A stretch of DNA of 64,000 nucleotides from a virus. Location: IMG/VR virus record IMGVR_UViG_3300045988_029408, positions 1 through 64,000 of that record, one strand, 5' to 3'. Positions within the stretch are counted from its first letter, which is position 1. Each line of letters opens with the position of its first letter. The position numbers were made by a program, and so were the translations under genes. The notes beneath the pieces were generated by a model, which saw nothing but the letters and a program-made list of their open reading frames with translations, did no database searches and was not told the DNA's origin. Shown one piece after another: positions 7,780-59,021 of the stretch.

Positions 7780-8403
7780 ATGGAAGAAATTTGGAAAGAC
7801 GTAAAAGGTTTTGAAAGTTTATATATGGTTAGTAATTTAGGGAGAGTTAAAAATGTTCCACATTATGTTACTAGAAAATATTATAGACCTTCTACTGGAG
7901 ATAATATTGAAGATAAATTGTATATAAAAGAAGTGTTGTTAAATCCTAAAAAGAAGTACCATCATAAAGATAGAGGGATATATAACTATTTCTATTATGG
8001 AGTAAGTCTTCGTAAAGATGGTAAGTATTACAACAAATCAATACATCGTTTAGTGGCAGAAGCTTTCTTACCTAATCCTGACAATCTACCTTGTGTAAAC
8101 CACAAAGATGAGAACAAATTAAATAATTGTGTAGATAATTTAGAATGGTGTACTTATCAACACAATAATGTTTGGAAAAATAGATTAGCTAAAAGTTTAG
8201 AAACGTTTAATGCAAATCCTAAAAATAGAAGGAAAGTATATCAATATACAAAAGATGGGGCATTCATTAAAGAATATGAATCTGTAAAAGAAGCTACTAA
8301 AGAAATGGGTTTAAAGCACAGTAGTGGAATATATCTTAGCTGTAATCATAATAATTGCTACGCAAGAGGCTTTAAATGGTCTTTTAACTCTCCTTCCTTA
8401 TAA
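7780..8403 (+). CDS. HNH homing endonuclease (free-standing)
   Basis: N-terminal WKDVKGFESLYMVSNLGRV (NUMOD4-like), VNHKDENKLNNCVDNLEW (HNH), and a C-terminal VYQYTKDG...FKW DNA-binding repeat. No TAG codons. Stops on TAA. Confidence 0.85.
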   Translation: MEEIWKDVKGFESLYMVSNLGRVKNVPHYVTRKYYRPSTGDNIEDKLYIKEVLLNPKKKYHHKDRGIYNYFYYGVSLRKDGKYYNKSIHRLVAEAFLPNPDNLPCVNHKDENKLNNCVDNLEWCTYQHNNVWKNRLAKSLETFNANPKNRRKVYQYTKDGAFIKEYESVKEATKEMGLKHSSGIYLSCNHNNCYARGFKWSFNSPSL

Positions 8404-8807: not shown

Positions 8808-9362
8808 ATGACAAGAATAACAAGAAGCTATATAGCTCCAAATCCTAAAGAATTCGAGTATTGGGTTGATTTATCAGCAGATCCAAAAGGTAATGTAATT
8901 AAGTATTACGCCGGAGGTAGTAAATGGTTACCTTTAAACGATGATACAGATAACGATCAGAGTGCTAGAATTGCTGCACTTGAATCAGGTAAAGTAGATA
9001 AAGTAGAAGGAAAAGAACTATCTAGTAATGACTTTACTAATGCATATAAAACTAAACTAGATGGTATTGCTGCACAAGCAAATAAATATGTTTTACCAAC
9101 AGCTACAGCTGAAATTATTGGTGGAGTAAAGGTAGGAGCAAATATTTCTTATAGTAATGGTACAATTAGTCTTAGTAAAGCTAATGTGACTAGTGCATTA
9201 GGATATACACCTCCTACAGCAGATACTAAAGTAACTATAAATAATACTTTAACGAGTACTAGTACTACAGAAGCTTTAGCTGCTGCACAAGGTAAAGCTT
9301 TAAAAGATTTAATTGACGCATTAACTACAAGAGTTGCTGCATTAGAAACTCCAGCAGCTTAA
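8808..9362 (+). CDS. Short fiber-like protein (paralog of the N-terminus and one module of the next gene)
   Basis: Intact ORF without TAG. NPKEFEYWVDLS N-terminal motif and KVDKVEGK...ANKYVLP...GGVKVG...ANVTSALG module are shared with gene 9377-13342. Coiled-coil C-terminus ending in AA. Confidence 0.75.
   Translation: MTRITRSYIAPNPKEFEYWVDLSADPKGNVIKYYAGGSKWLPLNDDTDNDQSARIAALESGKVDKVEGKELSSNDFTNAYKTKLDGIAAQANKYVLPTATAEIIGGVKVGANISYSNGTISLSKANVTSALGYTPPTADTKVTINNTLTSTSTTEALAAAQGKALKDLIDALTTRVAALETPAA
8994..9203 (+). repeat. Fiber module, copy 1 (paralogous to 11087-11299)
   Basis: By-eye protein and nucleotide similarity: VDKVEGKxLSxND(F/Y)T ... ANKYVLPxATA ... GGVK(V/I)G ... (K)ANVTSALG. 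Confidence 0.6.
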
Positions 9363-9376: not shown

Positions 9377-12300
9377 ATGGTAACAAATAGGATAATATTT
9401 TTTGCAACATCTGTTCAACCTAATCCAGAAGAAATAGACTATTGGGTTGACTTATCTGATAATCCTTACGGTGGTAGCATTAAATATTTCAATGGAACCG
9501 AATGGGTAAGGCTGGCTGCCTCTGGTGGTACACCTGACCTTAACAACTACTATACTAAAACATAGATAAATAATCTACTTAATAATAAAGCAGATGTTGG
9601 AGATGTAGATAGTAAAGTAGATGATGAAGAAGTAAAAGATGTAATAAAGGATATACAATTTAATACTTCTAATCCTAATGGCATTACTATGGTAATGTTT
9701 AAGTATGATGGAAGTAATAAAACTGTTTCAATACCAGTAGCCTCTACAAGTTCTGCTGGTATCATTACATCTAAAGATTTCTTAGACTTTGTTAAGCAGC
9801 ATCAGTTATAGGAACTTCATACTGAGATGATTGATACCTTTGCTGATATACGTGCAAAGTATTAGAAAAAACTCATTGCAGGTTTAAACATTGAAATTGA
9901 TCAAGAAACTAATGTTATTAGTGCATCTGGTGATCTAGCTGTACAATGGGATAATATTACTAACAAACCAGATTTTAAACCAGTAGCTACATCTGGTGAT
10001 TATAATGACTTAATTAATAAGTTAAAACCAGGTAAAGACGTTAGTATTAGTGAAGATAATGTGATTAGTATTGCTATTGATTCAGATTCATTAGAATAGT
10101 CTTTAGCTACTTTACAAAGTAATATAGATAAAGAAGCTGCTACTGCTCGTGCTGCTGAAACTAAATTAGGCAATGATATAGCTACTGAGAAGAATAGAGC
10201 TCAATCTGCTGAATAGACTATTGGTACTAACTTACAGAATGAAATTAATAGATCTACTCAAGTAGATACTCAACATACTAATGCTATAAACAAAGAAGTA
10301 CAAGATAGAAAAGAAGCTATTGCTACAGAAGTTAGTGATAGAAATGCAGCTATCTTAGTAGAAACTAATAGGGCGAAAGCTAAAGAAGAAGAGCTCGACG
10401 GTAAGATTACTGATCATACTACTGCAACTAATGCAGCATTAGCATTAAAAGCAGACAAGTCTAATACTTATACTAAGGCACAAGTAGATGCTAAATTATC
10501 TGGTGCTTATAAAGTAAAAGGATCTAGTACGTTTGAAACTCTACCTAAAGACAACAATGTAGTCGGTGATGTATATAATATTACTAATGCGTTTAACTTA
10601 GGTGGTAAACACTATGATGCTGGTACTAATGTAGTATGGACTGAAGATGGTTGGGATGCTTTATCAGGTTCATTTGATACTACTGCTATTGAAGGTAGTA
10701 TTCAAGAAGTAGCTGATGATTTAGCTCAAGAGATACTTGATAGAACTCAAGCTGATACTACTATTAATAACAATGTATCTTCATTATCTAATAGAGTAAA
10801 AGTAAATGAAGATAAACTTACTATTATTAATGGTAATGAATCTACTACTGGTTCTATAGCTAATGCTATTAAACAGGCTAAGTCATATACAGATACAACT
10901 GTAACAGCTGAATAGACTAGAGCAGAGAAAGCAGAATAGAAACTAACTAGTGATTTAGCTAGTGAAGTAACTAGAGCTAAAGGTGCTGAGTCTGCTAATG
11001 CTACAGCTATAGCAAATGAAGTAGAAAGAGCTACTGGTGTAGAAGAGACATTGAATAGTAATATTACTCAACTGTAGACTCAAAAAGTAGATAAAGTTGA
11101 AGGTAAAGGTCTTAGTACTAATGATTATACTACTCCTGAAAAGAATAAATTAGCTGCTATTGAAGCTGAAGCTAATAAGTATGTATTACCTGCTGCTACA
11201 GCTAGTGCATTAGGTGGTGTTAAGATAGGTAGTAATATAACATTAGCAAATGGCGGTACTATTAGTATAACTAAGGCTAATGTAACTAGTGCATTAGGTG
11301 TAGATCCTACTACTACTTATGTAAAGAAAGCTGGTGATACTATGACAGGAAGTCTTTTCATTGAAACTACATCTGAAATTAATTTATATAATACTATTTC
11401 TGTACCATCTAGTAGATATGCGGTGTTGAGATTAAAAAGTGGTGATAACTATTGGGATGTTACTACAAAAGGTACTGATGGGTTGCTATTACAAAAACAA
11501 GGTGCTTCTGATGTGCAATTAAAATTAGATACATCAGGTAATGTTAGTATTCCCGGGTATTTCAAATCTACCGTAGCTACAGGTACTGCACCTATACGAG
11601 TATCTTCTACTACTCTATGTACCAACCTGAATGCAGATATGGTAGATGGTTATGGAGTTTCAAATTTTAATACTGATAGCGTATCTATTAAGCGCTCTAT
11701 AAATAGTGTAAATCAATCCAATGCCGAAAATTGGATTAAACTTTGCACTCTACCATTAACTAGTTAGATAACAACATAGGATAAAAGAGTAGTATTTGAA
11801 ATAGTTGGTGGAACTGATGTTGGTGAAAAATATGCTTATTATGCAACATTGACTGCTTCTACCAGAGTTACGGAAAATGTAGAATTGCGTATTTTGAATA
11901 GTGTGGATACTATTTCTATTGCTACGTTTATAGCTGGATATGTTATTACTTCTGATAAAGTAGAAATATGGATTAGAACTGGTAATTAGTGGGGGGCAAG
12001 CACTAATATAGTATGTAAATATGCTTCTACTAATGCTGATGACATATTAAGTAGCCCAGCTACTACATAGAGACCAAGTAATTTTGTATTAGGTAATATT
12101 AAAACACTAGATGCTCCAGATTGGTACGGTGTATCTTGGTCAGAGACATCATCTAATCCAGATTGTACCCGTATTGGTAATATGGATATGCATAGATCAT
12201 TACCTATATAGAGTATGATGAAAGGATATCTTTATTTTAAAGACGGAAATCCTTTATATAGAATGTTAAAGCTAAACGATAGTTGGACTAAATGTGAAAA

Positions 12301-13342
12301 TTATTCTGCTGGAGGATGGAGAGATGTAGATTTGCTAGAAGATAATAACATAAATGTAATGATTAAAATACCTGAATTTTGGTGGATAGATGATTATATA
12401 GAATCTACTGAAACACATAATTTAAAAATATGTCCACATGCCAAACCAGGATGGCATCACCATAAAGAAGCTTATGTGTCTGCATATGAAGGTTATATTG
12501 ATGGAAATTATTATAGATCTTCTAAAAATAAAATACCTAGTGTTAATTTCACAAGATCTACTGTAAGACCAAAAGCAAGAGCTAATGGTTTAGGAAATTC
12601 ATGGAATATATATACATATAATGAACATAGAGCCATATGTCATTTGTTCTTAGTAGAATATGCTACCAGAAATAGTCAAAAAGCAGTTAATACTGCATTA
12701 ACAGTTGAAGGATTTAGACAAGGTGGATTAGGTTCTGGTTGTACTACAGGTACAGTAACTATCAACGGAACTACAACTTACTCGTTTATTCCTACTGGAA
12801 GTTCTGATAGTTTAGGTAGTGGTTCTGGTGAAGTTACAGTAACTATACAATAGACAGATTCATCTGGCTCTAATACTACAACTACTACAAGAAAGTGTAA
12901 TAGATATAGAGGAATAGAGAATCCATTTGGGCATGTGTGGAAACACACTGACGATGTTATTAGTGTATATATTTCTGGTTACAGCGCTAGATTTTGGTAT
13001 AAGTGCGATTCTCCAGATCATTTCGGTGATTCTATCTCGAATAATAATCCGTACTATAAAAATATAGCAGCAAATGCTGTAGTTACTGGATACAAAACAA
13101 AAATAGTAACTACGTCTACGTGTGACTTTTTCGCTTTATCTTGCAACAATGGTTCAGAAACAACATACTGGTGTGACTATAATTGGGATAATACGGATGG
13201 TTCATTACATTGTTTGTTAATAGGTGGTAGCTCTGACGATGGCGGCAGAGCGGGTCTGTTCTATCTTAATTCCGGTAATGAGGTTGGTAATTCCTATGCT
13301 AATATCGGTTCTCGATTAACATATCTCCCGTGGGCGGAGTAA
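9377..13342 (+). CDS. Tail fiber / receptor-binding protein (1,321 codons) with a C-terminal DGR-diversified lectin/FGE-like domain
   Basis: Frame-2 track ORFs 9377, 11342, 12215 and 12935 plus all gaps were read codon by codon. 14 in-frame TAGs, first TAA at 13340-13342. C-terminal RYRGIENPFGHVWKHTDD ... GGSSDDGGRAGLFYLNSGNEVGNSYANIGSRL matches the usual DGR target-domain pattern. The VR lies in the last ~45 codons. Confidence 0.85.
11087..11299 (+). repeat. Fiber module, copy 2 (paralogous to 8994-9203)
   Basis: Same motif order as copy 1, inside the long fiber gene. Confidence 0.6.
13213..13313 (+). repeat. DGR variable repeat (VR)
   Basis: 101-nt alignment to 13427-13527 at a constant offset of 214. 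There are 21 mismatches, every one at a template adenine. All 60 non-A positions are identical. Confidence 0.92.
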
Positions 13343-13426
13343 TGACTTAATTATGCAATACGGTATAGTTAAGTAATACCCACAGGTTGCTTCTCTAGAA
13401 TTAGAACGAGTATGCATTATTAGTTT

Positions 13427-13527
13427 TAAGTAAAAAAGTAGTAACTCTGACAATAGCAGCAAAGCAGGTCTATTCAATCTTAATTCCAATAATGAGGTTA
13501 GTAATTCCAATGCTAATATCAGTTCAA
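13427..13527 (+). repeat. DGR template repeat (TR)
   Basis: Non-coding copy (contains TAA in the VR-equivalent frame). A-rich, with AAT/AAC/AGC codon equivalents. Lies between the target gene and the RT. Confidence 0.92.
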
Positions 13528-13666
13528 TGAAATTGCGTATCATAATATTTTCAGTTTATCATATAATAGCCAACTACTGAGAAGGACCTTACCACTTGGT
13601 AAAAAATATAAATAATTTATTAAGGGTTAGTAGTGAAATATCGAAAGCTCTTTGTAATTTCAGACT

Positions 13667-14695
13667 ATGAAGAAATTTAAGAATTTATATTAGAAGATAA
13701 CAGATTTAGATAATATAAAGCTAGCTCATCATAATGCTAGAAAGAATAAAACTCATAGAAACGATGTAAAGAAAGTAGATGCAGATATAGAAAGATTTTG
13801 TAAGTAGATACATGATATGTTAATCAATCATACTTATAAAACTTCTGAATATTTTACTTTTAAGTTATATGAACCTAAAGAAAGAATAATATTTAAACTA
13901 CCTTACTTTCCAGATCGTATAGTACATCACGCTATTATGAACATAATGGAACCTTTGTGGATCAATTAGATGATACCTTAGACTTATAGCTGTATTAAGA
14001 AAAGAGGAATTCACAAAGTTCTTAAGTAGATATAGCATGATCTGAAAGATAGAAAGAATACTAAATACTGTCTTAAAATAGATATTAGAAAGTTTTATCC
14101 TTCAGTAGATCACGATATATTAAAATAGATAATTAGAATAAAGGTATCAGATAGAGAACTGTTATAGTTGTTAGATGAAATAATAGATTCATCAGATGGA
14201 GTGCCTATTGGTAATTACTTATCTTAGTTCTTTGCTAATCTATATCTATCTTACTTTGATCACTGGGTTAAAGAAGATAAAAACATAAAGTATTATTATA
14301 GATATGCAGATGATATAGTAATACTTTATAAAGATAAAGAGTCTTTGTAGACATTACTTAGAGATATAAAGTAGTATCTAAAAGATAATTTAAAACTATA
14401 GTTAAAGAATAATTATCAGGTATTCCCAGTAGAAAGTAGAAGTATAGATTTTGTGGGATATAAAATATATCATAATTTTACTTTAGTTAGAAAAGCATTG
14501 AAGAAAAGATACTGTAAGAAGAATGCTAAACTGAATAAAAGAAGTACTAACTATAAATATTATAAAAGAAAAATGGCTAGCTATATAGGATGGTTTAAAC
14601 ATGCTAACTGTTATTCTTTACTTACTAAAACTATTAAACATAAAGAGCTATTAGATTACCTGGATATACGTAAAGGAAATAGAACATACGAATAA
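13667..14695 (+). CDS. DGR reverse transcriptase (342 codons, 12 in-frame TAG)
   Basis: ATG 13667 to TAA 14693-14695, frame 2. Only the last 80 codons appear in the ORF track. Joined translation has PDRIVHHAIMNI, KIDIRKFYPSVDH, VPIGNYLS(TAG)FFANLYL and YYRYADDIVIL (YADD at 14303-14314). Confidence 0.9.
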
Positions 14696-14736
14696 TGAGT
14701 ACGTTATAGTTATATAATTGCAGAGACTTTAACATA

Positions 14737-14768
14737 TGCTAGCAGTAATCATACCGACTAGCATTTTT
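14737..14768 (+). terminator. Weak rho-independent terminator after the RT
   Basis: TGCTAG / CTAGCA 6-bp stem, 15-nt loop, then TTTTT at 14764-14768. Confidence 0.45.
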
Positions 14769-14815
14769 ATTTCAGATAAAACTTAAGTAACGTGTTAAGC
14801 AGAAGTGAATAGATA

Positions 14816-15334
14816 ATGAACCTCGTAAAACGTATATTTGCTAACGGATACCAATCTATAATAGGTTGGTTAGGTGGACTTGCAACTATACTAGCCCCAT
14901 CAGTGCCTTTGATAGGAGTTACGTTCTTATTCATAATATTAGACTTAATCTATGGTTATAAAGTTTGCAAAAAGTTTACCGGATCTAAACATTTTGAATC
15001 TGGTAAGTTCTGGAATACTCTAGAGAAGTTAGGGTTTGCAGCTATAATGATAGCTGGTTTTACTTTTTTAGATAAGTTTATATTTATGACATATGCGGAT
15101 CTGGTGCTAGCTAAAGTTGCAGCAGGTGCTATATGTGTTGCAGAAATAATTTCATTATTAGAGTCTAGGAAAGCATTAAAACCTAATTCACTAATAACAA
15201 AACTGTTTACAAAGATAATAAAGTCTAAGGCAGAAAAATATTTAGATGTAGATATAACAGACATCTTAGAAGAACAAAATACTATTACAAATGATACCAA
15301 TACTGATAAGTCTAGCAAAAAGATTAATAAGTAA
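14816..15334 (+). CDS. Holin (Phage_holin_4_1-like multi-TM protein)
   Basis: Several hydrophobic helices. LDLIYGYKV...SGKFWNTLEKLG and CVAEIISLLES resemble the holin family 4 signature. No TAG. Stops on TAA. Confidence 0.65.
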   Translation: MNLVKRIFANGYQSIIGWLGGLATILAPSVPLIGVTFLFIILDLIYGYKVCKKFTGSKHFESGKFWNTLEKLGFAAIMIAGFTFLDKFIFMTYADLVLAKVAAGAICVAEIISLLESRKALKPNSLITKLFTKIIKSKAEKYLDVDITDILEEQNTITNDTNTDKSSKKINK

Positions 15335-15368
15335 CATTATCGGTTGGTTTAAAAGGAATTACAAAGCA

Positions 15369-15947
15369 ATGGCAGTGATTATCATTATGATTCTCGCTGC
15401 CATTTGTTTTTATTAGAATAACTAGCTAGATAAGAAGAATAGAGAAATAGATAGAGTAACTAATAACTATCTTTACTATGAATAGCTAGCAACATAGTAG
15501 AAGAATGATAATAGAGTTCTATAGCTTACTCTAGATGAATTTAAAGAAACCAAAGATAGCTTGATACAAGAAGTACATGCTACAGTAAAGAAATTAAAGA
15601 TCAAAGAGAAGGAGTTGAAATAGGTACAGATATAGGAGTAGAAAGTAGTACATGATACTACAGTAGTAGTTAGATCAACTGACTTTAAAGTGGAAATCAA
15701 ACCAAACAATTTGACATCAATCATAATAAATAAAAGAGATACGCTCCTAACACATAGTATCGACATTCGCAATACACAATCACTATTTATTCATACTAAA
15801 AAAGAATATAAGCGTAATTATAAGAATTGGTTCTAGCGACTCCTTCACTTTGATTTTAAAAAACGAACTATTTATAAGTACCAAATTGATAACAGTAACA
15901 AGTTAATCAATGTAGAAAATACTAGAATAATAGATTTATCAAAATGA
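15369..15947 (+). CDS. Spanin-like lysis accessory protein (N-terminal TM plus coiled coil)
   Basis: ATG 15369 to TGA 15945-15947, frame read codon by codon. 10 in-frame TAGs including a TAG-TAG pair. N-terminus is MAVIIIMILAAICFY. Invisible in the ORF track. Confidence 0.6.
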
Positions 15948-29556: not shown

Positions 29557-29568
29557 TTAATAACAAAT

Positions 29569-32500
29569 ATGTCATACATAGATTTATAGAACGCTACAAA
29601 AAATCCGTCATTATACAGAAATAACAGCATTGGATTTCTGGATAAGGCTTACTATGAAAATAAGAACACCTCAGATTGGGCAGCAGATTATGATTTCATA
29701 GATTGGGCTTAGGACGCAACTAGAGATTATTATAGAAGTTTACAAAAAGGTTAGATGTAGACTTCTCAGGATAAAATGACAGTTAATAAATAGAACATTA
29801 ATGATTCTTAGAAACTGTTAGAGTTGTATGATCAATTAGATCAAGTTGATTCTAAAGACCAAGTAGCTATTATTCAGAATGAAATAAGTAATATTACGGA
29901 TTCTATGCGTAAGAATGGTAGTTGGTCATATTAGGCAGACCCTAATAGAGACCAATTACAAGGTATCATAAATGATAACCAAAAACAATATGACGAAAAT
30001 TATAAACAGTATTTAGGTGATTTAGAAGAACTAAATTAGTCCTATAAGAACTATGATATAAGTCAGTACTATACAAGAAAGAGTAATGATGCTACCGCTG
30101 GATGGGGTAATTTTTTCTATAAAATGCCATCAACTATGGGCACTAGCAACACTAGCGCCCTGTATTAGACTACTAGTATGTTAGCAGGTTGGGGAGGATT
30201 CGTAGCAGGATCTAAATTAGGAGCAGCAATTGGAGCTGCTGCTGGACCTGTTGGAGCCGCAGCTGGTGCTGTATTAGGTGGTATAATTTCTATTGGCGCA
30301 GCTCAATTATTTGGCGGAATAACCTCGCGTGAGAATGAGTCCCACATGGAAGCATTTAATGGGTATTCTGAAAAAGTATAGCAACTAGCTGAAAAGAGAA
30401 ATGTAGATCTACAACCTGTGATAAATAATACTAAGCAGCAATTAGCTAAAAAAGGTGTAGACGTTACTTATTTAAACGATAATGAAATAATACAAGCGGC
30501 ATTAGCAGATGGCGATATCATATCAGGTTCTTCAGAATTTGATCAGATAGCTAAAGAAGCATATCTTGGAACTAGAAGAATATATGAGCAGAATAATGCA
30601 CTTGGGTTTGGAGAAGTACTATCCGATTTATCTTATTTTATACCGTTGGGTAAATATCTAACAGGTACTGCAAAAACTGTTGGTAAATTTGCATATAAAA
30701 CCATAGGTAGTCCATTTAAACAAGCAATGGCTAACAGAATGGCACAAGGATTACAGGTTGCAAATCTTGGCTCCAACCTAAGAAAAAAAGTAATAGCTGA
30801 CAAACTTTTTGATTTTGTAACAGGTTCTGTATGGCGTAGCGCAGTGGAAGCGTCAGAAGAAGGTGCACAAAATGTAATTAATAAGAAGTATATGAACGAT
30901 GAGTATGCAGACGATTATGCAAATTCATCATTTTATGATGCGTTGATAGATGGTCAATTGATTGAAGATACTGTAGACAATTTGTGGCTTAGAGCTAAAA
31001 CTTTAGGAGCTGCTTTTAACATTAACCACGAATATGAAAACGATGCACAGCTATTTGAGGAGATGATGGGTGGTGCACTATTGCCATTCTTTAGTCCACA
31101 AGGTATGGTCGGTTCTGCTTTAAATGCTAGAAAAACATTCAATGATATTACTCAAAGTAAAAGAGTTGGAGATTATGTTGCTACAGCGTTGATGCAACAA
31201 GACGAGATTAACCGGAATTCTGATTTTTATAAAAAGATAAGGGAAGGTGTGAATAATGGCACTTATCTTGATATGTTAGACAGAATTAGTAATATGTTAA
31301 AACAAAAAGGATCTGATGGAAAAACTACGCAATACAATTTGGACACTACTGTTTTAACAAAAGATGGCTCTATTCCTAAAGATACTGATATTGACGAGTT
31401 TATAAACGAGTAGAGAGAAGAGTATAATAATTTGATTTCTCACAAAAAACAATCAGCTAAACAATTGAATGAATTGAATTTGGACGTAGAGGATGAAGAT
31501 TTATTGCTAGCTCTTTCATGGAATGCCAAAACTGAACTTTCTAAAGCTATGGCTTTGAAAGCAAAAGAAGGTTTAGTTGCCGGAAACAATGCTATTACTT
31601 TGTTAGAAAATGAAGATTTTAAAAACAAAGCCAAACAGCTTTTGAAGAAAGATAATTTGACAGATGCACAGTTGTTACAAATAGCTACTCTTTTAATTGA
31701 TAAACAAGTTCAGCAATATTATGACCGTTTAACAGATTAGTCAATAGCGGAAACACAAATTAAAGCTGCATTAACACAAGGTAGAATAAGTAAATATACC
31801 GGGTTATTTGATGCTACAAATAGTTTGAATCAAACATTGTCAGAGAATAGAAAATCTAAGAAGCGTATAAAAGATAATATCAGTAGACTAGCTAAAGAAT
31901 TAGATGTAACAGAAGATGCACTTAACGAATTGGATGAACGATTGATCGGTGATACTAAACTGTTTAAGGGTATTCAAAATAATGCTAAAAATAGAGGTGT
32001 ATTAAATATAATATCTCCACTACTACAAGAGAAATCTGATAAACTACAAAGTACTGATAAAGAATATATATCTCAGCAGATAGCTAAATATAGAGAAACA
32101 CAACACATACAAAACAAATTAGCAGATGCCGTTAATGAAGCCTCTAGAGCACACAGTGAAGATGTTAAAGAAATTGATGAAACAAAGTCTCCTAAACAAT
32201 TAGAAGATGAAGTTACAGCATTGCAAGACGCTTAGGTTACAGAACAACGGCAGTTAATAGAGCAAGACATAAATAATACTATATCACAGTTTGAAACTTT
32301 ATTAAGTTCTATACCACAAGGAAGTGTATTACATAACATCGTTGATGAAGTAAATAAAGGTAGAGATCTTGTAGGTACAGATGCTTTATCTTATGCTAGA
32401 TATCTTAAAAACTTAATGAACAAGTTATCTAAGAGATATGCAGATAAAAAAGAAACCGAAGGTGTATCTGATCAAGATAAACAAAATTTAGATAAGCTAC

Positions 32501-35500
32501 AAAAAGCGGCTAAACACTTAGGTGATCAATTAACTAGGTTAACAGATTTGGTAGATGAGGATAATGCTAGAATATAGAGACACAATCCTAATTTTCCAAG
32601 TGATTCTACTGTGTGGTTTGATGAAAACGGAGATAGATATTCTTTTGATTTTGCAAATTCTGAATACTCTGAAAAAGAAGGATTATTGTTACATGGTAGA
32701 AAAATAGTACAAGATTCGGAAAAAGATAGAATTAATGAATAGATAAATCTATTAGAAAAAGAACTTAAATTATTAGATAGTTAGGAAGATGATATTAGTA
32801 AGCAATCTGCCGATTCGTTGAGAAAAACAATATCTCAATTAAAAGATGCATTATCATCTATGGACTTTTCTAATCAATTTACTGTAAAAGCAGATGATCC
32901 ATTATTACAAACCCTTACTACCAAAGATAATCTAGGTAACACTAAACAATTTAGTAACAAACTTAAGAGATTGGTAAATTCGGTAAATCAAAGTATAGAA
33001 GCTAATAAAAAATCTAGAAATAGAAAAAGAAGTATAGATTCTGTAGACGGTGATACTTTTGAATTTAATCTTGATAATGAAACTGGTAAAAAGCACGGTC
33101 CATTACACCAATAGGATCTAATAGAAAAAAGTAAAGACAGACCTTTAATGATTAAAGGGTATCCTTTGAATAATAGTATGGGAGCTAGAATATCTACTAT
33201 GCTAAGCAATCCTTACTATGCTAGTAAATTCTGGAGAGGGTTTATTACTATGCCTTATCAATCTTCTGATGAAGCTAAATAGGAAATAAGCAAAGATTTC
33301 GCAATACTAAAGAAATTCGGTCGTACTTTAAACAGATATAAAGCTATTGATGATTTTAATAAGATAGGAAAACAGATAGCATATCTTAGAGAGCAAGGTA
33401 AAGCTACGGACGATATAATAGAAAATATAAATAAATTAGCTAATGGTGAAATAGATAGTGTTACTGTAGGGTTAGCTAAACTAAGCAAAGATGACTACGA
33501 TAACATAGTATATGCTCTACCTGTAAGAATTTATTTCAATCAGAATAGAGTTGGTAACAAATGGTCTTATGTGGTAGGTGCAGACTTTGCAGGTTACGCT
33601 TACTCTACTGAACCTTCTAAAGCTGAGCTTGATTCACGTTCAGAATTAATACATAATTTGTGGTATAATTATAAAAAGGTAGAAAAGAAAGAAGATGTAG
33701 AAGGATTGGAAACCGAATCTTCTAAACCAGAATATACCAATAAAATAGGATTCCAACCTGGAGATATGATTGTAACAAATGGGGGATACAATTATCAAGT
33801 TACGACAATGGTAAATCCTAATCTTAATATTTATCAAAATGAAGCTGGTTAGACAATGACATCTAAAGAAATAGATGAAAAATATGAAGGTGAATTACCA
33901 GAAGCAATAACTAAAGTGTCTGCACATTTGGATGAACTTGTGCAATTAGCTAAAGAGATTGGCTACAGTAATGTGAATGTTAAATCTCTCAATGAACCTC
34001 TTAGTAATGAGCGACAGAGTACTACCAAATTGGCTCACTTACTCAAAGGTTTAGCTAAGTATGCAGATGGATTGGTAGACTTACATAGTACGTTTATACC
34101 GAAATATGTTATACCTACTTTAGGTCAAGCTGAAAAAAGAGGTACAAAAGTACAGAGTGCTAATACTGAAAGAGCTAAACAATTACTATCTTTTGCTCAA
34201 AAGTATTCACCAGAATTGTTCTTATCGTATAAGAACTATCAGGATGATAATAATCTTACGCCTATAGTAGAAGATACCGTACAGGAAGCTTTAAACAACA
34301 GATGGTTTAATGGTAAAAATTCATTAAGTATTGAATTGAACGGTGAAGTTGTAAGTACACTGGACACTTAGGATAATAGAGATTTGTTAGTTAGAATAGG
34401 TAATACTATTGAAAAATTAATTAGAGATAGCCACGATTCACAAGAATTTATGGATAAGCTAGAGATTCTGGGTTACAATTTTAAGAAAAATGGTAATTCT
34501 GAGGAGGGTAATCGTATAATATCTCAATATTTTGACAATAGAAGATTCTCAAGATTAAGTAGACCTACTAATGTAATGCAAGCTATTACTATGGGTACTG
34601 CTGAGCCTCTGAATAATATAGATTATAATAATTTTAATCGTGTAGCTAAACACGAACAATCTAAATTAAATCAAATTCAAGCATTGGGTTTAATCAAAAA
34701 TTCCGATGGTCAATATGTATTTTCTTTAGTAGATTGGTTAAAGCGTAACGCATAGGATGAAGAGTCAGCAGAAGGTAGATAGCTAGAATCAGAAGTAAGA
34801 AAGTAGGAACTTCAAACTGAGCAAGAAAGTTTACAAAAAACTGTAAGATCAATTAGGAAAAAAACAGAACTGATTAAATTTATTGGTGACAATGAAGAAT
34901 TACTTGGTAAAGAATTGTATGATCAACTTGTACGCGTTAATAGAAAAGGAGAATTTGTATTAAAATACGATAATGCTGGAGCTACCAAATCACACATTAT
35001 TGCTAAAATCAATGAAGTGTATGATTAGAAAATAAACCAAGTAAATGCTCAATTAGAAAAAGAACTTGAAGAAGAAATAAGTAAAAATGAATTTGAAGGT
35101 AAAAAAGTATCTCCTGTAATTTTTGGTTATGGTTCATATGATTCAGAAGTAGGTTCTAACATCGTGTATTTTAACAGTAAAGGTGAAAAAGTACTGGTAA
35201 AGGATGCTAACGGTACTCCTGGTGCTATTTACCTCATAACTCCCTCTTTCTTATCTTCTTCTAGAAGACACACTATTGTGCACTTAAATCCTAAAAGATT
35301 TGATAGAACAACTGCTAAATTCTTAGCTTCTATACTTAAAGGAATAAATGACGGAAAATATAATTTAAGTAGTTATGCTAGAGATATAAATGTAGAAGGA
35401 TTTATTATAGACACAGATATGTCTGTTAAGCAATTATTAGATACTTTTATATATACTGGAACAGAAGCTATAGCTAATAATCCATCGGACAACAATTATG

Positions 35501-38500
35501 CTAGATTGTTGTATGTGGATAAACAAGGGGTCCATTTTGGATAGCAGTTACTTAACGAAAATAATTTTGAAGAATTAATAAATTTTATAATTCAAAATAA
35601 AACATATCGCATAGACAGAGAAAAATTAGCAGGTTCTAGTGTGTTCGGTAATAATTTAAAAGTACAGGACTAGAATGGCAATATTCTTTTTGACCACAAA
35701 GCGGATGAAGTTTATTCTACAATACTTATTGATGACGGTATTGTATTAACAGATTTAAATAGAACATCAAGTGCTATTACAGTTAAACCCAGCGTATATG
35801 TAAATTATAAGAAAAAGGTAACATTTGTTAGTTCTGCTTAGAGGACTCAAGACAGTGGTACTTCTGCTGAAGCTAAACAAAGATTAGGAGAAGAAATAAA
35901 CTCTGATCAATTATACGACGAAATGACCAATCAAGAAAGTAAAGGTGGCATAAAAGAAGCACAAAAATATATTGAGAACTTCTTGAAAGGGTTTAAAGAT
36001 CGTATAAACAGTTTTGCTAAAGATGGCAAATTGCAACCTGGAAAATACAAAGTAGCTGTGTATGGAATGCGTAGCAAACGGATTACCGCTACGTACGATG
36101 CTGATTTATCAGCAGATACTGATACTGGTCAACTTAGTATAGCTATAAGTGAACAACCACAGTTTATAGCTAGATTAATAAAAGCTCTTATTAATAAAAA
36201 ACAAGTTCAATTAGTACTTGCAGACGAAGAAGGTAAGTTTGTACAAATAGACGGTAAAGCTATATTCTTTGGTAGAGGTTTTGAACATACCGATTTTGAC
36301 ATAGATACTAAACAAACATCATCCCAATCATCTGAGCAAGGAAATTTGTTACAGCAATTAGTTGAAGCTATGCAGTAGTTGGTATCTAATTCTAATACTG
36401 TTCCACAACAACCAGTTTAGTAGGTGGTTCATAATTAGCCTCAAACTAATTTACCAGTTGGATATAACGGTTTTAATACCCCTATTGAGAATCTTCCAGT
36501 ACAACCAAAGACGGCTAGTGAAACAACTGTAAAATTTGAAGATGAACCAGCTGAAGATACTAAAGTAAGTATACAAGAGGTTGGAGACGATTTAAAAATG
36601 TCTTTCAATGGAATTACTGTTCAAATACCAAAAGATAGTAGTAGCAGTGATTTGGAAATAGCTTTATCTTCACAAGAAGATATAACAGATGAAGATTATG
36701 ATTCTTTTATTTCTGCACTAGAAGAATATAAACAAAAACCTGAAACTAGTGTTGAAACTCAAACAGAATTGAAAGGTCTTAATTTGAGACCTACTCCAAT
36801 TTCACAGTTTGCTACTCCAATACAGGAAAAACCATAGTTACAATCTGTATAGGAACTGATAGATTTCTTAAAGACAGGGTCTTCTACTGATAAGAACAAC
36901 GCAAAACGATTAGAAAATCTTAGAAACTCTGAAAATATAAATACAGCTAAAGATATTATATCTGGAGCGTTAGCAATATGGGGTGTACAAAACAAACTAT
37001 ACAGTTCTAGATCGGAAGCGTTGTTTGATGATAATATAGGTAAATTAGCTGATTAGTTTGCTAGAGAACTGGTATATCAAGATGGAGTTAATACAGGCGC
37101 TATATTTGACTTCTTAGACCAACATGTGTAGAAAGAGGATTACGATTCCGCTTTAGATAGAGTAACAACTATATTGGGTAAAGATTTTGATTTCTCTTTC
37201 TTACCAGAAAGTAAAAGAGTGTGGGATAAAGTTAGAGGTGCTCAGATTTATGTATTTGGAGAATGTGCAGCATCTGGTATACGTTTGTACAGAGATGCTA
37301 AGCTTAATAAGATTGCTAGAGGCTCGTTCTATCATGAAGCTTTCCATAGAATTAGTCTATTTGTTCTTTCTAAAGAACAAAGAGGTAAGATGTATAATGA
37401 TGCACGCAATAAAAATACAGATCTCGCGTTTGCTTCAAATTAGCAGATAGAAGAATATTTAGCAGATAGATTTGCTGAATTTGTAATAGAAAGTTCTCAG
37501 GAGCATCCTGATAAATATTACGAAGGTAATATCTTCAGCAAAGTGTTTCAACATATTGCAGACGCTGTAAGAAATATAGTAAGGAAGCTTTCTGGTAAAA
37601 ATATAAATCCTAATTATAGTAATCTTGACAAATTGTTTAAAGATATGTATTCTGGTAGATTTGCATATGCCAAAGCTACTAAAAACAACATAGAAGAGTT
37701 TGAAAAGATGTACAGTAAAGCTCCTGTGTATTCTGGTTTCAAGGTAAACGGAGTTACTTTAGCTGAAGACGCAATCCAATATAATGAAATAATGCGTGAT
37801 ATGCTAGGTAAATTAATTTATAACTCTGGTATATATACAAATACAGATGGTAGACTATCTATAAATACCAACGCATTAAAAGCATCTTATCAACATGATA
37901 TAGCAACATATACTAAAGCCGTCATTGAGTTAGATAAACAATTGCGTAATAAAAAAATTGATAAAAACTTAAGCCGATTTAGTGATGACGATATTGCTAT
38001 AGCTTAGGCTAAGATGGTAAGACTTATTAATGTTTATAAAAATATCGTAAGAGACGATACTTGGGATCAATGGGCTGGAATAATTCGTAATTTTGTAGAA
38101 CGTCAATTTAACCTTGTCCAAGATACTTCTCACAATCCTAATAAAGTATTAAAAGCTGATATTGAAGAAGATGTTGAAATTACAGAAGATGGACAAGATG
38201 AATTACAAGAGTACGGTATAGATGTATTAGGATTTTCAGACTATCGAGATAGTTATATGAGAGATATGTATAACAGTATGGACGCTAGTATGAAAATGCT
38301 ACTATGGTCTATAACTGATTTAGATCCTACAGATGCAGCTACTGCTAAATATACGCCAGATGGTATACTCAAATTTGCAAATGTAAGAGATTTATATACT
38401 AGAATAGTACACGCTATAACTAATTCTAATAGTGTAGAAGATATGTTGAACAAACTGTATTCGGCAGCTAAGACACAAATGGAAGAAGAAAATAGTTCTA

Positions 38501-41500
38501 CTATGATGTAGGTATATCATATACTTAGTAATGAAAACACTAATAGTGCTTTATTGAACAGATTCTTTACTGACTTTGTTAAGTATATTCATAATTTTGA
38601 AACTCATTCTTACACTACTACTGCTAGAAACATAGGTTCAAATGGCGAATATAGATATGGAGCTACTACTAAGAACGGAAGTTTAGATGCAATCCAAAGT
38701 AAACTAGACAATAAATGGAAAGGATCTATGATTGTTGCGCTTGATATCATTTCTGATAAATTAAACAGTGTAGCTACTACTAGTGAAGCTGGCAAGTTAT
38801 TTAGAAATATGATAACTCCGCTAAAATAGGCTATGAACAAATTGAACATAGAAAACTTAGAGTCTATAAAAGACGTACTTAGAGAAGCAGATAAACTTTA
38901 TCAATTTGGAACTATTACTGGCGATTTATAGCAAGATGCTGTAGCTTGGCAGAAAGCTATGCGTAATGCATCTAAAAGTGGTAAGGTTGGTAAAAATTTG
39001 CTTTTACAACCTTTAAATAAGTTAAATACATCTAATGTTTCTGAATTTAGACTTCTAGAATCTTCCAATAAACGTTAGCAAGGAGTATATAAGAAGTTAG
39101 ATGAGATGTTTACTGAAAAAGGTATTCTTACTTAGTTATCTCAAATGTTTGGTTCTTATATTAAGTCTATACCATCCACACAATCTCAAAAAGGTCCCAG
39201 AAATACCAAAATATATTCAATAGGATAGTATAATTTCATAACTAGAACTTTTGCCATACTTGCTAACACTAAAGAATGGGTTGATAAGATGTTGAATAAT
39301 ATTTATAATTCTCATTCTGTGTGGTTAAGTACACTAAAAAATTTAGGTGGAGCTAAACAAGTACAAGTACACACAAAACTTAGTACAGTATTAGATGATG
39401 AATGGAATGACTCTGTAGCAGATAAAGAAGTAACAGAACTAGAAGATTTGACAAACAGGTTTATATCCATATGGTCAGGTAAACATGTTACACCAGCGTT
39501 GGCTAATAAAAGATTTGCTGCTGATATTGAAGGCATACCGATATTTGAAAACATAATCAATGATAATTTAGATATAAATCCTAAAGTAATAGATGTATTT
39601 GTTGGTTATTTGGCAGATGAAATTATGGCTATATCAGATGCTAGATACACTAGAGATTATTTCATTGAAAAGTTGAACTAGGCAACTAATAGCAATTACA
39701 CTATTGATTCGTTCTCAAAATTGTCCTCATTGTAGTAGGAACAAATATTTAAAAATAACCCAGAAGCTGCTAAGTTACTTAGACTATTAGTAAAAACGTA
39801 TCATTACGTAGAAGGAGAGCAGCAATGGTTATACGATGAAGTTAATGATAGATATTACAGAAGAGCGTTCCATATAGATTTACGTTCTGGTAAAAAAGGT
39901 CCTAGAGGATACGAATTTAGGCACTTTAAAGATATAGGTAAATCTATAAATCTTTCTTCTAACGTGGTGCAAAAAATATCTTCTAATATGTTCGATACAG
40001 ATTCTCGTCAAAGTTCTATAGATTATGTTTATAATATGATAAACCGAGAAAGTATCAGAAAACAAATAAGAAGCATGTTAAATGATAATATTGCATACGC
40101 TATCGTTAAACTACAACAATTAAAAGCTATTATAGTAGATGATGCTGGTAATATAACAAGTAATCGTTACTTGCCTTCAGATTTAATTAAAAAATATATT
40201 TATGGTAAACAATCTGTTAATGTAAACGAATTAAGCGGTAATGATTATTATAGAGCTATTGGTTCTGCTGTAATACAAGGTATGTCAGATATATCAGAAT
40301 TTGAGAAACTATGTCATGGAGATATTGCGTATCATAAAAATATTGACGGTGTAACTAAACGTTATTCAGGTATTGTTTCTACAACTTCTCTTACTTCAGA
40401 GAAAGGTACTATGAGAAACGTGTTTGACGAAGAAGATAGATTATTCGATAGTAACACATATAATTCTGTTACTTTGAACACCACAATGGTTGTAAATCAA
40501 GCTAAGTATAAAGGGGAAGCATACAGAGCTCTTGGGCTATCTGAGAACATGGTTAAAATATATTTGGAAGATAATAATATAAAAGTAAATATTGACACTT
40601 CTGACGTATTAGATGCTGATGGTAACATAAAAGATAATTATCGTAAAGCTAAATTGATAAATCGGTTACTGCAATTTAGAGAAGAACGACGTTTGAAAGT
40701 AATGATCAACGGAGAACCAATGTCTGATGCATAGTTATTAGATGTTGCAGTAAAAGATTTTGAAAACAGATACGAAGGTTATCTTAAAAACGACCCATCA
40801 GATGCTCAAAGTTGGGTTACCAGTCAAATGTTTAGAGCTTTACAATAGCGAAAAGGGGCGTGGAACGATGTATCTGAAGCTATATATAATCTACTTACTT
40901 ATTATGACAAATTCGGATCTGATAAGCTTACTCCTAGAACTATAAGGCTTATTTAGGATAATATATGTAAAGTGCTTAATATAAATTATGACGAATTAGT
41001 AAAAAAAGCTAAGGCATACGATGCTAATAAAACTAATTTAAACAGTAAAGAAGTGCGCGATTATAAAGGGTGGATTTTTGGTATTGCTGATAAATTCAAA
41101 TTTGAATCGCCATCTCTTAAGTATATTTACTACGGATACGATTAGGGTAGAATGGATGGACTTACTACTCCAATTTATGATAAATCTTCTTATAAAGTAT
41201 TATGGAAGATTGAAGTAGAAGGACATGAAATACAACAGTTATACGATTTTATGCAAGATAGTAATGTAGACGTGGTTAAACAAGAAACTGCCGTTAAATC
41301 AGGAGGTTTACCTAACTTTGAATTGTTCGATTTAAACGGTAAGGTGGATAGAGCTGCACTAAATGCTTCAGTAATTCAATCGCAATACTTTTCTTTGTTA
41401 GGAGACCAGCTTAATACAGCTTCACATCACACAAACGACGCTAATCTATTGACTCAATTTATGAAAGTGGCAATGATGAACACAAATAAAGACAGACGAT

Positions 41501-44500
41501 ATAGAGTTAATGGTGTTACAGTTGATGGTCAAATGCTTCAGACATTCTATAAAGCGATTCTAGATGAACTTACTAGAAGAGGGTCTGTTAAATTTAACAA
41601 AAAATGGGGTATAAACGATAACGGAGTTGTTGATAAAAAAGCTTTTATGAAGTCTTTATAGACCATGGCTCAAACTGAGAATCTTCCAGCTGAAACAGTA
41701 GCTGCTTTCCAAGTCGATGAAAACGGTGAATTTAAAATACACCCAGCAGCAATGCCAAATATTGCTTGGATAATGTCTCGTATTCTTGCTCAAATGGGTG
41801 ATACTATAATAGATACTGTTACTCCAGGTAAAGCTTTGTATCAGGTAACTAGTGTTGGTTATGATAATTTCATGAATTTGAAGCAACATGCTGACAAACA
41901 TCTATATATGCCTGGGGAAATTGATTCTAACGGCAATATTCATCAAAGAATGCAAGTTAGATTGTCTATAAATTTCTTTGACGATGTAATATAGGAAGCT
42001 AAACGTAATAAAATTAAAGGATACGATTTTGATAACTTTGAAGATCAGCGCAGGTTCATACTAGATAATAAGGAATTATTTGCATTATCATATCGTGTTC
42101 CTACACAGGGGTAGAATTCAACTATACCTGTTGAAATAGTAGATTTAGTACCTAGTCTTAATGGTAGCATGATCCAATTCCCTTCTGGTATTACTGCACT
42201 TACTGGTTCTGACTTTGATATTGATAAAATGTTCTTAGCTAGATACAATTATGAAGTTGTTAATGGTAAAATGCAAAAAGTTAAGTATGATATAAATGAA
42301 GTGATGAATAATATAAACAGCACCGATTCCAAAAAATTACAAAATTTCTTATTAGATATGTATCAAGGTGTGTTGACTTCTTTAGATCATGCGTTGGCTA
42401 CTAGTACTCCATTGGACGTTGCTACAGGACCTATTAGTACATTTGCCAAGAAAGAACTAGAAGAATATTCTGGAGGTAAAGCAGACGGATTACCTGATAA
42501 TTTAGACGGATTTTATCTTAACCCAGTATTCCAAACAAGGTAGAAAAAGCTTAATTCAGGGTCTGATGCCGGTATTGGTCCTATGGCGTTAAATAGTGTA
42601 TTCTAGTTCTTTGTTCAGATTGCTAAATTAGATATGCGTAAATTCCCAATTATTGAGCAATTGAGATTATAGAAATTAGGAGAAACTTTTGATAGATACG
42701 GTGAAGAAATATTGGATTCAACTTCAGGTCTTATTAACGCGTTTGTAGATGCTGCTAAAGATAACTATATCGGCAACGCTAATGTTAACGCTTATACTTT
42801 TGATGTAGTAGCTATGCTAATTGCATCTGGGTTTGGTAATGACACGTTTGCATTCTTAACACAACCTATCATAAAGGAAATTTCTGATAACTGGTTGACT
42901 TATAAACAAGGACTCATTGGTGTATCAGATTAGGAAAAAAGAGGTACATATTTTATGGACTCTGTAATAGAAGATTACAATGACAGATTAAAATCTTTAA
43001 GTGCTGAAGATACACCAGAAAAAGAGTATTCAGAACTGACCAAACACGATGTATTAATGGGCAATCTTAAACCTAAACATGACGCTAGATGGATTAAAGA
43101 TTAGCTTACATACGCAAGTATGTTTAGACAATTGTATGAATTAGCAAAAGAGTACCACAATGCTATTTCAAATGCTCAGATTGATACTAAGAAGTACGGT
43201 GTTAACATTAACCAATTACTTTCTTTTATTCAAGGTGTGAACCAATTCAACTCAGAATATAATATTGCATTTAGTAATCCTAGAGATATGTATGATAATA
43301 CGTTCTTAGGAGCTAAGTATACTAAGGGAGTTATGGGTATATTTGACACATTTAGTAAACTATTACCTGAATTTTCCAAAGTATATATTGATGCAGCTAA
43401 TGAACTTAGTAAAGAATGGGGTTTATATGGTAGACAAAGTAAAGAATTCCTAAGAGTGGTTGGACCTAAAATAAAAACTGTACTTTATTTGCCATTCTTT
43501 AATCAGTATATAATTGAGAGATTTGGCGGAAAAGCTTTAGCAAAGTTAACATATGGTGAAAATAGCGTTCCTGGAAGATATGAAGCTATTAAACGTAAAG
43601 CGTTACGTAGAGGTGAAGGAATAGACTTGTTCAACGCTGTTAAGTATAACAAACTTGGAGATGTCAAAGTTCCTCAATTCATGTTGGTTACACAACAGTT
43701 TAAAGAAGATTCTGACGTTAAAAATAATGTCCAGTTAGCTTTAAGTGAATTATTCAATAGCACTGATCCTGAAATAAAACAATGGGCTGAAGATTTTGCA
43801 GTTTATATGTTCTATGTATCTGGCGGTACTGATTCAAATGCTGGTGGTATTGTTAGAACTACAGTATACGATATTATTCCACCACAGTACTTAGCTAACT
43901 TAAGAGCTGGTGGAAAGACATTTAATTAGTATATTGCTGAAAATGTCATGGGTAGAACAACAGGTATGACTAATACTGAAAAAGACCAAATAATTAGCTT
44001 ATTGGCTGTATCTGATGACAATTATGTTCCTACTATATCTCCTAGAAATCACAAATATGTAATCAAAAGAGTTGTTGGTAATGATGTGATTACTATTACT
44101 AAAGGATCCAATTCGTTATTTAATAGAAGTACTAATACTTATAGTCCTTTTATTAAAATAACCACTTCTAATGGATATGACTTATATCGTCTTGGAGAAA
44201 AAGTGTCTTCTATTTCTAAAAAAACAGGTACAACATTTTCTAATCCCGTATATTATAAAGTTAATAAACTTGGATATAAGAGTAATAAGAGACAGTCGTT
44301 TGCTTTAAGAGCTGATGGTTACATTAGTGAAGACGGCACTATAAGGTCTTTACTGTGGTAGGATAATGATTTTAATAAATTGGGATTCAATAGTTTGAAT
44401 GAGAAAGAATAGTCTATTTATATGAATAATACTAATACTACTCTAGATAAGATAGATGATGCTTTAAGTGGAAGTATAGATTATTCTAAATATTTCAATT

Positions 44501-44901
44501 CTCAAAAAGCCAATGATGATTCTGAACAGCAAAGAGCTTTAGTAGATACTGTAGATGCTGTGTATTTTATAGCGGACAGTTCTTTCAGTTATCATTTGCC
44601 AGTTAGAGACTATGCTAGATTTAAAAATAAAGAATTTTATGTAATATCTATAGATTAGACTGAAATACCCACAGCAAATGGCTAGAAAATAGCAATCATT
44701 GGTGATTCTGCAAATACTGCTATAGAGATATACAAAAACAATTCTGATAAATAGATATATACGTTTGTAAATTATTTCGGCGAACGGTCTTCTGTATTTT
44801 AGGCGCTGTACAATTAGATAGGTGATGAGTTAAATAACAATAAAGAATCTGAGGATAGTGATTAGAAAGGTAGTGCTATTAAAGATAAATGTAAAAATTA
44901 A
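29569..44901 (+). CDS. Giant polyvalent virion protein (5,110 codons) with a two-barrel RNA polymerase DxDxD motif and an HExxH motif
   Basis: All 24 frame-1 track ORFs from 30178 to 44422 and every gap between them were read codon by codon. 67 in-frame TAGs and no TAA/TGA until TAA 44899-44901. Contains RVPTQG...GSDFDIDKM, HEAFH, and an N-terminal Gly/Ala zipper (30178-30330). Confidence 0.8.
37333..37347 (+). other. HExxH (HEAFH) zincin-like motif inside the giant ORF
   Basis: Context is GSFYHEAFHRISLF ... EEYLADRFAEF. Confidence 0.5.
42211..42225 (+). other. DFDID metal-binding motif (crAss-type virion RNAP signature)
   Basis: Reads gac ttt gat att gat. Preceded by YRVPTQG(TAG)NS...ITALTGS. 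Confidence 0.7.
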
Positions 44902-50148: not shown

Positions 50149-50153
50149 AACAT

Positions 50154-51155: not shown

Positions 51156-51157
51156 AC

Positions 51158-59019: not shown

Positions 59020-59021
59020 AA

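Follow-up and report, generated by a model that had tools for sequence, protein, structure and literature searches.

Layout of the locus

The stretch analysed here, hereafter the window, comprises positions 1 to 64,000 (64 kb) of the IMG/VR virus record IMGVR_UViG_3300045988_029408, and between positions 9377 and 14695 it carries a cassette that we read as a diversity-generating retroelement (DGR). In order, the cassette holds a target gene for a tail or tail-fibre protein (9377..13342), a variable repeat (VR, reported at 13213-13313) at the 3′-end of that gene, a template repeat (TR, 13427-13527), a spacer and a gene for a reverse transcriptase (RT, 13667..14695). All of these lie on the plus strand, as does every feature given below unless the minus strand is named.

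The window belongs to a TAG-recoded gut crAss-like phage (Crassvirales, Suoliviridae) whose nearest relative is cr6_1; its DNA is 90–92% identical to MT835473 and cr6_1 (Afonbuvirus faecalis). The genome is roughly 97 kb long, and ∼33 kb of it lie beyond the window. Reading TAG as a sense codon extends the longest open reading frame (ORF) from 694 to 5115 codons, and in the plus-strand block 1-49574 there are 190 in-frame TAG codons, which account for 28% of the glutamine codons and never act as stop. Under translation table 15, the target ORF encodes 1321 amino acids with 14 in-frame TAG (Gln) codons, and the RT encodes 342 amino acids with 12, one of them at Gln187 (nt 14225). Residues 846-1318 of the target match the PHROG family phrog_5302 ‘tail protein’ (E = 8.7e-76), and homologs of the target bear Phage_fiber_rpt and Phage_head_fibr domains.

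TR and VR, of 101 nt each, align without gaps, the offset being 214 nt throughout. The two have 21 mismatches, every one at a TR adenine (13 A to G, 7 A to T and 1 A to C), while all 60 non-A positions of TR are the same in VR, as are the remaining 20 of its 41 adenines; the hypergeometric probability that 21 of 21 mismatches fall on 41 adenines among 101 positions is 1.0e-10. VR lies within the last ∼45 codons of the target ORF, and TR is intergenic, adjoins the RT side and has a TAA in the VR-equivalent frame. A second VR for this TR was absent from the 64-kb window on either strand, with any base allowed at the A positions.

An earlier interpretation made from the letters of this DNA (the sequence-only reading) had proposed a complete DGR aimed at the C-terminus of the tail fibre, and its core parts are present and passed the independent tests described below. 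Its alignment, with the offset of 214 nt and all 21 mismatches on TR adenines, was reproduced exactly, its view of TR as non-coding holds, and the placement of VR at the 3′-end of a 1321-codon ORF agrees with the boundaries 9377-13342 and with the PHROG tail-protein match. The repeat extent of 13213-13313 stands only in part: the match does run over 101 nt, but the outer 11 nt (13213-13223) and the last 2 nt (13312-13313) probably lie outside the transferred tract or match fortuitously, since these VR columns are essentially invariant in 46 relatives. In the A-rich TR stretch opposite 13213-13223, just 3 non-A positions must match. The hypervariable tract of VR, 13229-13304, corresponds to TR 13443-13518, which is about the mutagenised part of the template, and fixed TR/VR differences at 13307 and 13312-13 occur in 46 of 46 genomes, in a candidate region for the initiation of mutagenic homing (IMH/IMH*). 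The variable codons number 17, nine of them AAY, from which ∼1e15 possible proteins were computed.

Variation of VR and TR among related genomes

The region was aligned over a set of 46 close relatives with RT identity of at least 89%, and the figures in this section are genome-to-genome comparisons within that set rather than variation within one sample. The 46 genomes have 46 distinct VRs but 7 TRs, and the TR of the window is found unchanged in 34 of them. Within VR, TR-A columns have an entropy of 0.996 bit and non-A columns one of 0.051 bit; averaged over all of VR it is 0.43 bit, and from the 3′ flank of VR to the RT it is 0.03–0.07 bit per column. In a count of each VR against the TR of its genome, substitutions occur at 986 of 1421 A sites and at 10 of 2627 non-A sites. 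The sequence-only reading had expected that mapped reads would vary at TR-A-equivalent positions only, and this restriction is borne out across the 46 genomes, which serve as a cross-genome analogue of read mapping. An A-specific TR/VR pair is also present in four GenBank relatives and in nearly all of 80 IMG/VR loci recovered via their RT.

Moreover, where a TR variant carries a new non-A base, the same base is found in the cognate VR in 27 of 28 cases. Since changes of TR outside adenines are mirrored in VR, the flow from TR to VR continued within this shallow clade, which indicates that homing is ongoing or recent.

Not all TR adenines behave alike. At 13252, which is four-fold synonymous (GCA to GCG), all 46 genomes have a VR G opposite TR A13466, and 13249 and 13307 likewise pair a TR adenine with a VR G; at the neutral four-fold site 13258, the A is kept in 57% of the genomes. 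The GCAGG/GCGGG difference is also seen in the distant cr53_1 clade.

In two genomes, L001 (cr6_1) and L017, VR contains an in-frame TAG in the column of window 13247-13249, derived from the TR codon AAA, and TAA or TGA occurs in VR in none of the 46. Such a VR-borne TAG is tolerable only under recoding, and the fibre of a standard-code phage would be truncated by it.

The target domain upstream of VR (12917-13212) is strongly divergent among the 46 relatives at all position types (0.52 bit), unlike 13314-13666, which is nearly invariant (0.03–0.07 bit). Around a conserved DGR core, the body of the fibre seems either to be swapped or to evolve fast.

Reverse transcriptase

The ATG of the RT is at 13667, 139 nt past TR, and the protein has the motifs PIGNYLSQ and YADD, in accord with the sequence-only reading, which had placed an RT with YADD and IGxxxSQ ∼140 nt past TR. 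It matches Pfam RVT_1 (9e-21) and the PHROG family ‘Reverse transcriptase’ (1e-123). Its best match in the Protein Data Bank (PDB) is 8ub7_A (bRT), over the full length at 3e-42; the next stands at 3e-15, and the matches after 8ub7, at about 1e-15, are to RTs of retrons and of group II introns, a gap of 27 orders of magnitude. We identify 8ub7 as the Bordetella bRT because D215/D216 match the catalytic residues given in bioRxiv 10.1101/2023.10.23.563531, and the identity of the RT to the Brt of BPP-1 (from NC_005357) is 34%. Besides D215/D216, Lys28 and the glutamine of SQ align with functional residues in the same report. Hence the PDB ranking and the identity to Brt place the enzyme in the DGR clade. 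It has its full length of 342 amino acids, as in 44 relatives, and all its motifs are intact. Two of the relatives have shorter RT frames, L002 (MT835473) with 299 codons and L060 with 199, both ending in TGA; these two RTs may be inactivated, though A-specific TR/VR pairs remain.

Codon 187 (14225-14227) is a TAG that encodes the glutamine of IGxxxSQ, and the aligned residue is Gln in 12 of 12 homologs, 7 of which are TAG-free. The alignment of this TAG with an invariant Gln is internal proof of the TAG = Gln code, and the presence of the codon makes the enzyme dependent on recoding. A TAG at the catalytic-motif Gln is unsurprising by itself, as 28% of the Gln codons in late genes are TAG. 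The same TAG is found in 45 of 46 close relatives and in 5 distant ones, and TAG-free homologs use CAA or CAG.

RNA elements around the template repeat

Several elements with predicted RNA structure surround TR. A stop-like duplex is formed by an upstream strand at 13385..13395 (GGUU-G-CUUCUC, with G13389 bulged) and a spacer strand at 13579..13588 (GAGAAG-GACC). Compensatory changes were found in 7 of its 10 pairs over 15 distinct sequences, and 99.3% of cells are paired, compared with 36–59% in controls with slid partners. The two-part architecture with a bulged G is present in every clade, including distant ones with the standard code.

Immediately 3′ of the spacer strand lies the hairpin P1 with an A-run (13589..13606; UUACC/ACUU/GGUAA, the hairpin proper being 13589-13602), which is 100% paired in 15 distinct sequences with one compensatory change from A-U to G-C. 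It is followed by the P2 helix (13623..13651), an RNAalifold consensus in which 5 of 6 pairs show compensatory changes; for P1 and P2 together the count is 6 of 11 pairs in an alignment of 16 diverse spacers. Both lie inside a match to the Rfam family RF03020 (RT-17 RNA) at 13585..13667, which scores 44.5 bits against a gathering threshold of 40.4. Among 10 diverse relatives, 6 have RT-17 above threshold, always abutting the RT start. RF03022 (Phage_DGR RNA) had no match at E ≤ 1 in 12500-15500, and the BPP-1 spacer itself scores 104.7 bits with that family. RT-17 thus marks the TR-RT spacer consistently in this DGR lineage; the loci on which this comparison with Phage_DGR was made are L081, L067, L001, L065, L080 and L053, just upstream of each RT start, and L085 (2750-2882). 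That other RT motifs act in DGRs has been raised as speculation only (Weinberg et al. 2017, PMC5737381); on these sequence matches, RT-17 could be annotated as a DGR RNA.

A further helix, H3, pairs 13528..13536 (UGAAAUUGC), which begins 1 nt past TR, with 13654..13662 (GUAAUUUCA), which is followed by a conserved A-G and then by the AUG of the RT. The position of H3 is constant across clades, and its strands co-vary: when partners were permuted over 6 clades, the cognate energy was reached in 3 of 720 permutations. An earlier comparison of 10 template types was blurred by closely related clades. H3 interleaves with the stop-like duplex and so forms a pseudoknot. By comparison with bioRxiv 10.1101/2023.10.23.563531, the stop-like duplex, P1 with its A-run and P2 are the putative cis-acting RNA around TR.

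Upstream of these elements, a 12-bp hairpin (13345..13374) is located just past the target stop, with −11.9 kcal/mol and z = −4.0 against shuffles. A gap of 10 nt separates it from the upstream strand of the stop-like duplex, its variants in L013 and L047 retain pairing via G-U, and its role may be that of a terminator, of a processing signal or of the 5′ element of the DGR RNA. AGUAGU at 13437-42 can pair with ACUACU at 13573-78, and it ends exactly where the hypervariability of VR starts (TR 13443). The distance between the upstream stop strand and the edge of TR is ∼41 nt (13396-13436) in the clade of the window and <10 nt in clades of 60% identity, and 13396-13436 has the look of an insertion into the DGR RNA that is specific to the lineage; it may fold a hairpin of its own (−5.1 kcal/mol, not significant). 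Directly past TR, where the Avd-binding stem stands in Bordetella, we found no stable or conserved structure, which fits the lack of Avd described below.

Accessory protein and target hairpin

Most DGRs, though not all, include an accessory protein, Avd (or HRDC). The sequence-only reading had stated that no Avd ORF fits into 13343-13666, where the longest stop-free stretch is 71 amino acids, and this statement can be extended to the whole window: no Avd-like Pfam family was found in 22 small window ORFs, and a phmmer search with BPP-1 Avd against 617 code-15 window ORFs gave nothing better than E = 1.5. Avd is absent from about a quarter of DGRs (PMC7290462).

A GC-rich hairpin at 13325..13339 (CTCCC-GTGG-G(C)GGAG) lies in the last codons of the target (LPWAE), 11 nt past VR, as had been pointed out before, and its credibility is raised by its codon bias. 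It has 80% GC in a genome of 32% GC, and its synonymous codons are all rare (CTC 1.7%, CCG 6.6%, GCG 4.9% and GAG 14.9%; joint probability 8e-6), a choice that points to selection on the nucleic acid. The hairpin is invariant within the clade, hence no covariation is visible, and other clades have dissimilar inverted repeats in its place. We regard it as a candidate target-recognition hairpin or cruciform.

Fold of the target protein

The sequence-only reading had seen in the end of the target a ‘lectin/FGE-like’ domain, for which we obtained no similarity to Pfam, PDB or Mtd. Pfam searches at E ≤ 5 on 58 members of the target family were empty, as was the comparison of a target-domain profile with PDB sequences, and hhalign of the target against Mtd gave a probability of 0.6%. 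The structure prediction of the fibre that had been suggested was run with AlphaFold2 on two constructs, targets of 606 and 327 amino acids (39 and 58 sequences), and it yielded low-confidence models with no reproducible fold: the predicted local distance difference test (pLDDT) was 57 and 55, and <50 in the VR part. For the first model only, Foldseek ranked TaqVP, a DGR variable protein, 1–3, weakly, with a probability of 0.85 and a template modelling (TM) score of 0.2–0.3; the second model gave no match, and the TaqVP match was thus not reproduced. The sole outside hint on the fold is a RefSeq note on the cr53_1 homolog, ‘similar to sulfatase, major tropism determinant’. A homolog search seeded with the distant member P0120 returned only proteins >92% identical to P0120 and so brought in no further diversity.

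Interpretation and alternative explanations

We conclude, with a probability of roughly 93%, that the cassette is a genuine DGR in an Avd-less layout of target gene, VR, TR, spacer and RT. In the mechanism that we propose, an RNA would be made from upstream of TR to the RT start, and the RT would copy the TR portion into complementary DNA (cDNA), misincorporating opposite template adenines. The cDNA would replace VR at the 3′-end of the fibre gene while TR stays intact, and up to ∼17 codons of the fibre tip could be rewritten, with roughly 1e15 possible proteins as the outcome. By analogy with BPP-1, the duplex between upstream region and spacer, P1 and the A-run may position the RT and halt the cDNA near TR 13443, and the GC-rich hairpin past VR may mark the target. 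The cDNA might be cis-primed from the spacer, again by analogy, either at ACUG 5′ of the stop strand (with CAGU in TR, 13520-13523) or at the A-G past H3. Since the RT gene has 12 TAG codons, including that of the catalytic-motif Gln, production of the enzyme would be limited to times at which TAG is decoded as Gln, presumably the late phase of infection.

A more far-reaching version of this proposal is that the cassette represents an Avd-independent lineage in which the RNA, made up of RT-17 and of two co-varying long-range helices that clamp the ends of TR in a pseudoknot, serves as a scaffold in Avd's stead, with homing gated by the TAG = Gln phase and with TAG sense codons writable into the receptor-binding site (2 of 46 genomes). 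We offer it tentatively and consider it rather unlikely to be correct as a whole. A somewhat better chance, only a little short of even, is given to a different role for H3, namely that it is a switch hiding the RT start region in the template-folded RNA, with priming in the Bordetella manner at ACUG 13576-79:CAGU 13520-23. H3 stops, with its 3′ strand, 4 nt short of the AUG, and the ACUG:CAGU duplex is nested inside the stop duplex, like in BPP-1. Priming there would start the cDNA at U13519, beside the last variable TR adenine (13518), and would account for the fixed TR/VR difference that every clade has at A13521; in addition, the pairing co-varies to CAGC:GCUG in L050 and is extended to CAGUAC:GUACUG in L061. 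However, the duplex has 4 bp, with 78% of cells paired and one compensatory pair, which is statistically weak, and in the clade of the window its register is shifted by 3 nt, so that it overlaps the stop strand.

Several observations weigh against our reading of the cassette as a genuine DGR. The VR of the window is the least diverged from its TR in the clade, with 14 core substitutions versus 16–26 elsewhere, and the case for activity in the window's own genome is drawn from comparison between genomes. No Avd was found in the window, whereas the Bordetella bRT requires one; a further ∼33 kb of the genome lie outside. For the target, attempts to show a C-type-lectin fold did not succeed. The always-G site 13252 is unaccounted for by random A-mutagenesis combined with protein-level selection. 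Finally, the priming site is ambiguous between H3 and the 4-bp ACUG:CAGU duplex (78% paired), an ambiguity to which the crossing of the stop duplex by H3 as a pseudoknot belongs.

The low divergence of the window VR is also what would be expected of a relic, an ancestral DGR that once worked but whose copy in the window is no longer homing. The truncated RTs of some relatives (299 codons in L002 and 199 in L060) agree with such decay, as do the many incomplete cassettes in published crAss-like groups (PMC7290462, PMC11054128). Nevertheless, the window RT retains its 342 amino acids and its motifs, the TR, spacer and RNA flanks are identical or near-identical to those of relatives whose VRs all differ, and the mirroring of TR variants in VR within a shallow clade speaks for recent homing, so that we hold a relic to be improbable.

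Two further explanations can be given next to no weight. An RT of a group II intron, a retron or a defence system (Drt3a), beside repeats from an unrelated duplication, is suggested by the best NCBIfam models (group II intron RT 114, Drt3a 77 and retron RT 59 bits), but all three scores are far under the curated cut-offs of 300, 200 and 235, bRT leads the PDB ranking by 27 orders of magnitude, Rfam families of intron or retron RNA gave no match in 12500-15500, the mismatches are adenine-specific and VR tracks TR. Ordinary mutation, recombination and diversifying selection without reverse transcription could draw on the divergence of the target upstream of VR (0.52 over 12917-13212) and on the frequent recombination of tail-fibre genes, but VR variation occurs only at TR-A columns, the synonymous site 13258 included, the non-A columns are conserved like the non-coding flank (0.05 bit), and non-A changes of TR recur in VR (27 of 28).

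Comparison with known systems

The cassette read here as a DGR resembles that of the prototype BPP-1 (mtd-VR/avd/TR/Sp/brt) in its adenine-specific transfer from TR to VR in the 3′-terminal part of a tail-fibre (receptor-binding) gene, in an RT that is 34% identical, falls into the same length class and shares the catalytic residues, in the spacer between TR and RT (139 nt here and 144 nt in BPP-1), and in the candidate GC-rich hairpin past VR. The order of a duplex between the TR-upstream region and the spacer, a short hairpin and then adenosines is also that of the ‘cPRT stop’ (bioRxiv 10.1101/2023.10.23.563531). Unlike BPP-1, the window has no avd between VR and TR or elsewhere, no stable stem-loop at the place of the Avd-binding stem, a target without detectable similarity to Mtd, and an RT and a target written in the TAG = Gln code. 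Moreover, its spacer matches RT-17 (RF03020) whereas that of BPP-1 matches Phage_DGR (RF03022), and it has the extra helix H3, pseudoknotted with the stop duplex.

Closer likenesses are found among crAss-like phages. The DGRs of crAssphage LMMB and of Intestiviridae (alpha; PMC7290462; lineage 3 / CLec3 of Wu et al.) have the same order of target gene (TG), VR, TR and RT (TG-VR-TR-RT) and lack avd, their target is likewise the tail fibre of a human-gut crAss-like phage, and their VR ends in a motif of the ‘...SRL’ type (here IGSRLTY); the window differs from them in belonging to Suoliviridae and in being TAG-recoded, and its RT may be a member of lineage 3 as well. The same cassette is present in cr6_1 (NC_055894; 90.5% DNA identity), with a TR identical over 101 nt and an RT that is 95% identical and has 10 TAG codons, whereas its VR differs, only at TR-A positions, and holds a DGR-written in-frame TAG. 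The RefSeq records of cr6_1 and cr53_1/cr115_1 place ‘Reverse transcriptase’ beside ‘tail protein’; in these records the RT is named ‘Intron reverse transcriptase’, and TR, VR and RNA elements are unannotated. The DGRs that zeta crAss-like phages carry (PMC12386605) also have tail-fibre targets and GxxxSQ RTs, reported as similar to Suoliviridae RTs, most are without Avd, and seven of their RT genes have amber codons that need suppression; they belong to another phage group with larger genomes, and PMC12386605 describes no RNA elements.

Hence DGRs in crAss-like phages, those of Suoliviridae and amber-recoded RTs included, are already published: Avd-less TG-VR-TR-RT DGRs in alpha crAss-like phages (PMC7290462), DGR cassettes stated to have been found previously in Suoliviridae (PMC11054128) and amber-containing RT genes in zeta crAss-like DGRs (PMC12386605), and DGRs are common across gut phages (PMC8241571). 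The RNA architecture and the link to RT-17, as predicted from sequence, would add modest new details, and the general picture of what DGRs are is unchanged. An abundant group of human-gut crAss-like phages (Suoliviridae) would, on our reading, keep rewriting the tip of its tail fibre, which bears on host range and long-term persistence. For specialists there are three by-products: a covariation-supported RNA architecture of an Avd-less DGR, with a Bordetella-like stop and an extra helix; a possible identity for the orphan Rfam family RT-17, as an RNA of DGR spacers; and the internal proof of TAG = Gln from the SQ glutamine of the RT.

Neighbouring genes and genetic code

The use of TAG differs between the two strands. 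The minus-strand block 49618-64000 has 3 in-frame TAG codons, the plus-strand block carries the virion and late genes, and all genes end in TAA or TGA. ARAGORN found no tRNA genes, and hence no suppressor tRNA, in the window. A single ORF of 5115 codons with 67 in-frame TAG codons occupies 29557-44901, a length usual among the giant virion proteins of crAss-like phages. Within the TAG-rich late block, 7780-8403 encodes an HNH homing endonuclease (NUMOD4, HNH_3, NUMOD1) with 0 TAG codons, which may be a recently acquired mobile gene. Just upstream of the target, a small fibre-repeat protein is encoded at 8808-9362, and it has the N-terminal motif NPxExxYWVDLSxxP...IKYxxG in common with the start of the target (9377-∼9500); both look like paralogous fibre proteins that share an attachment module.

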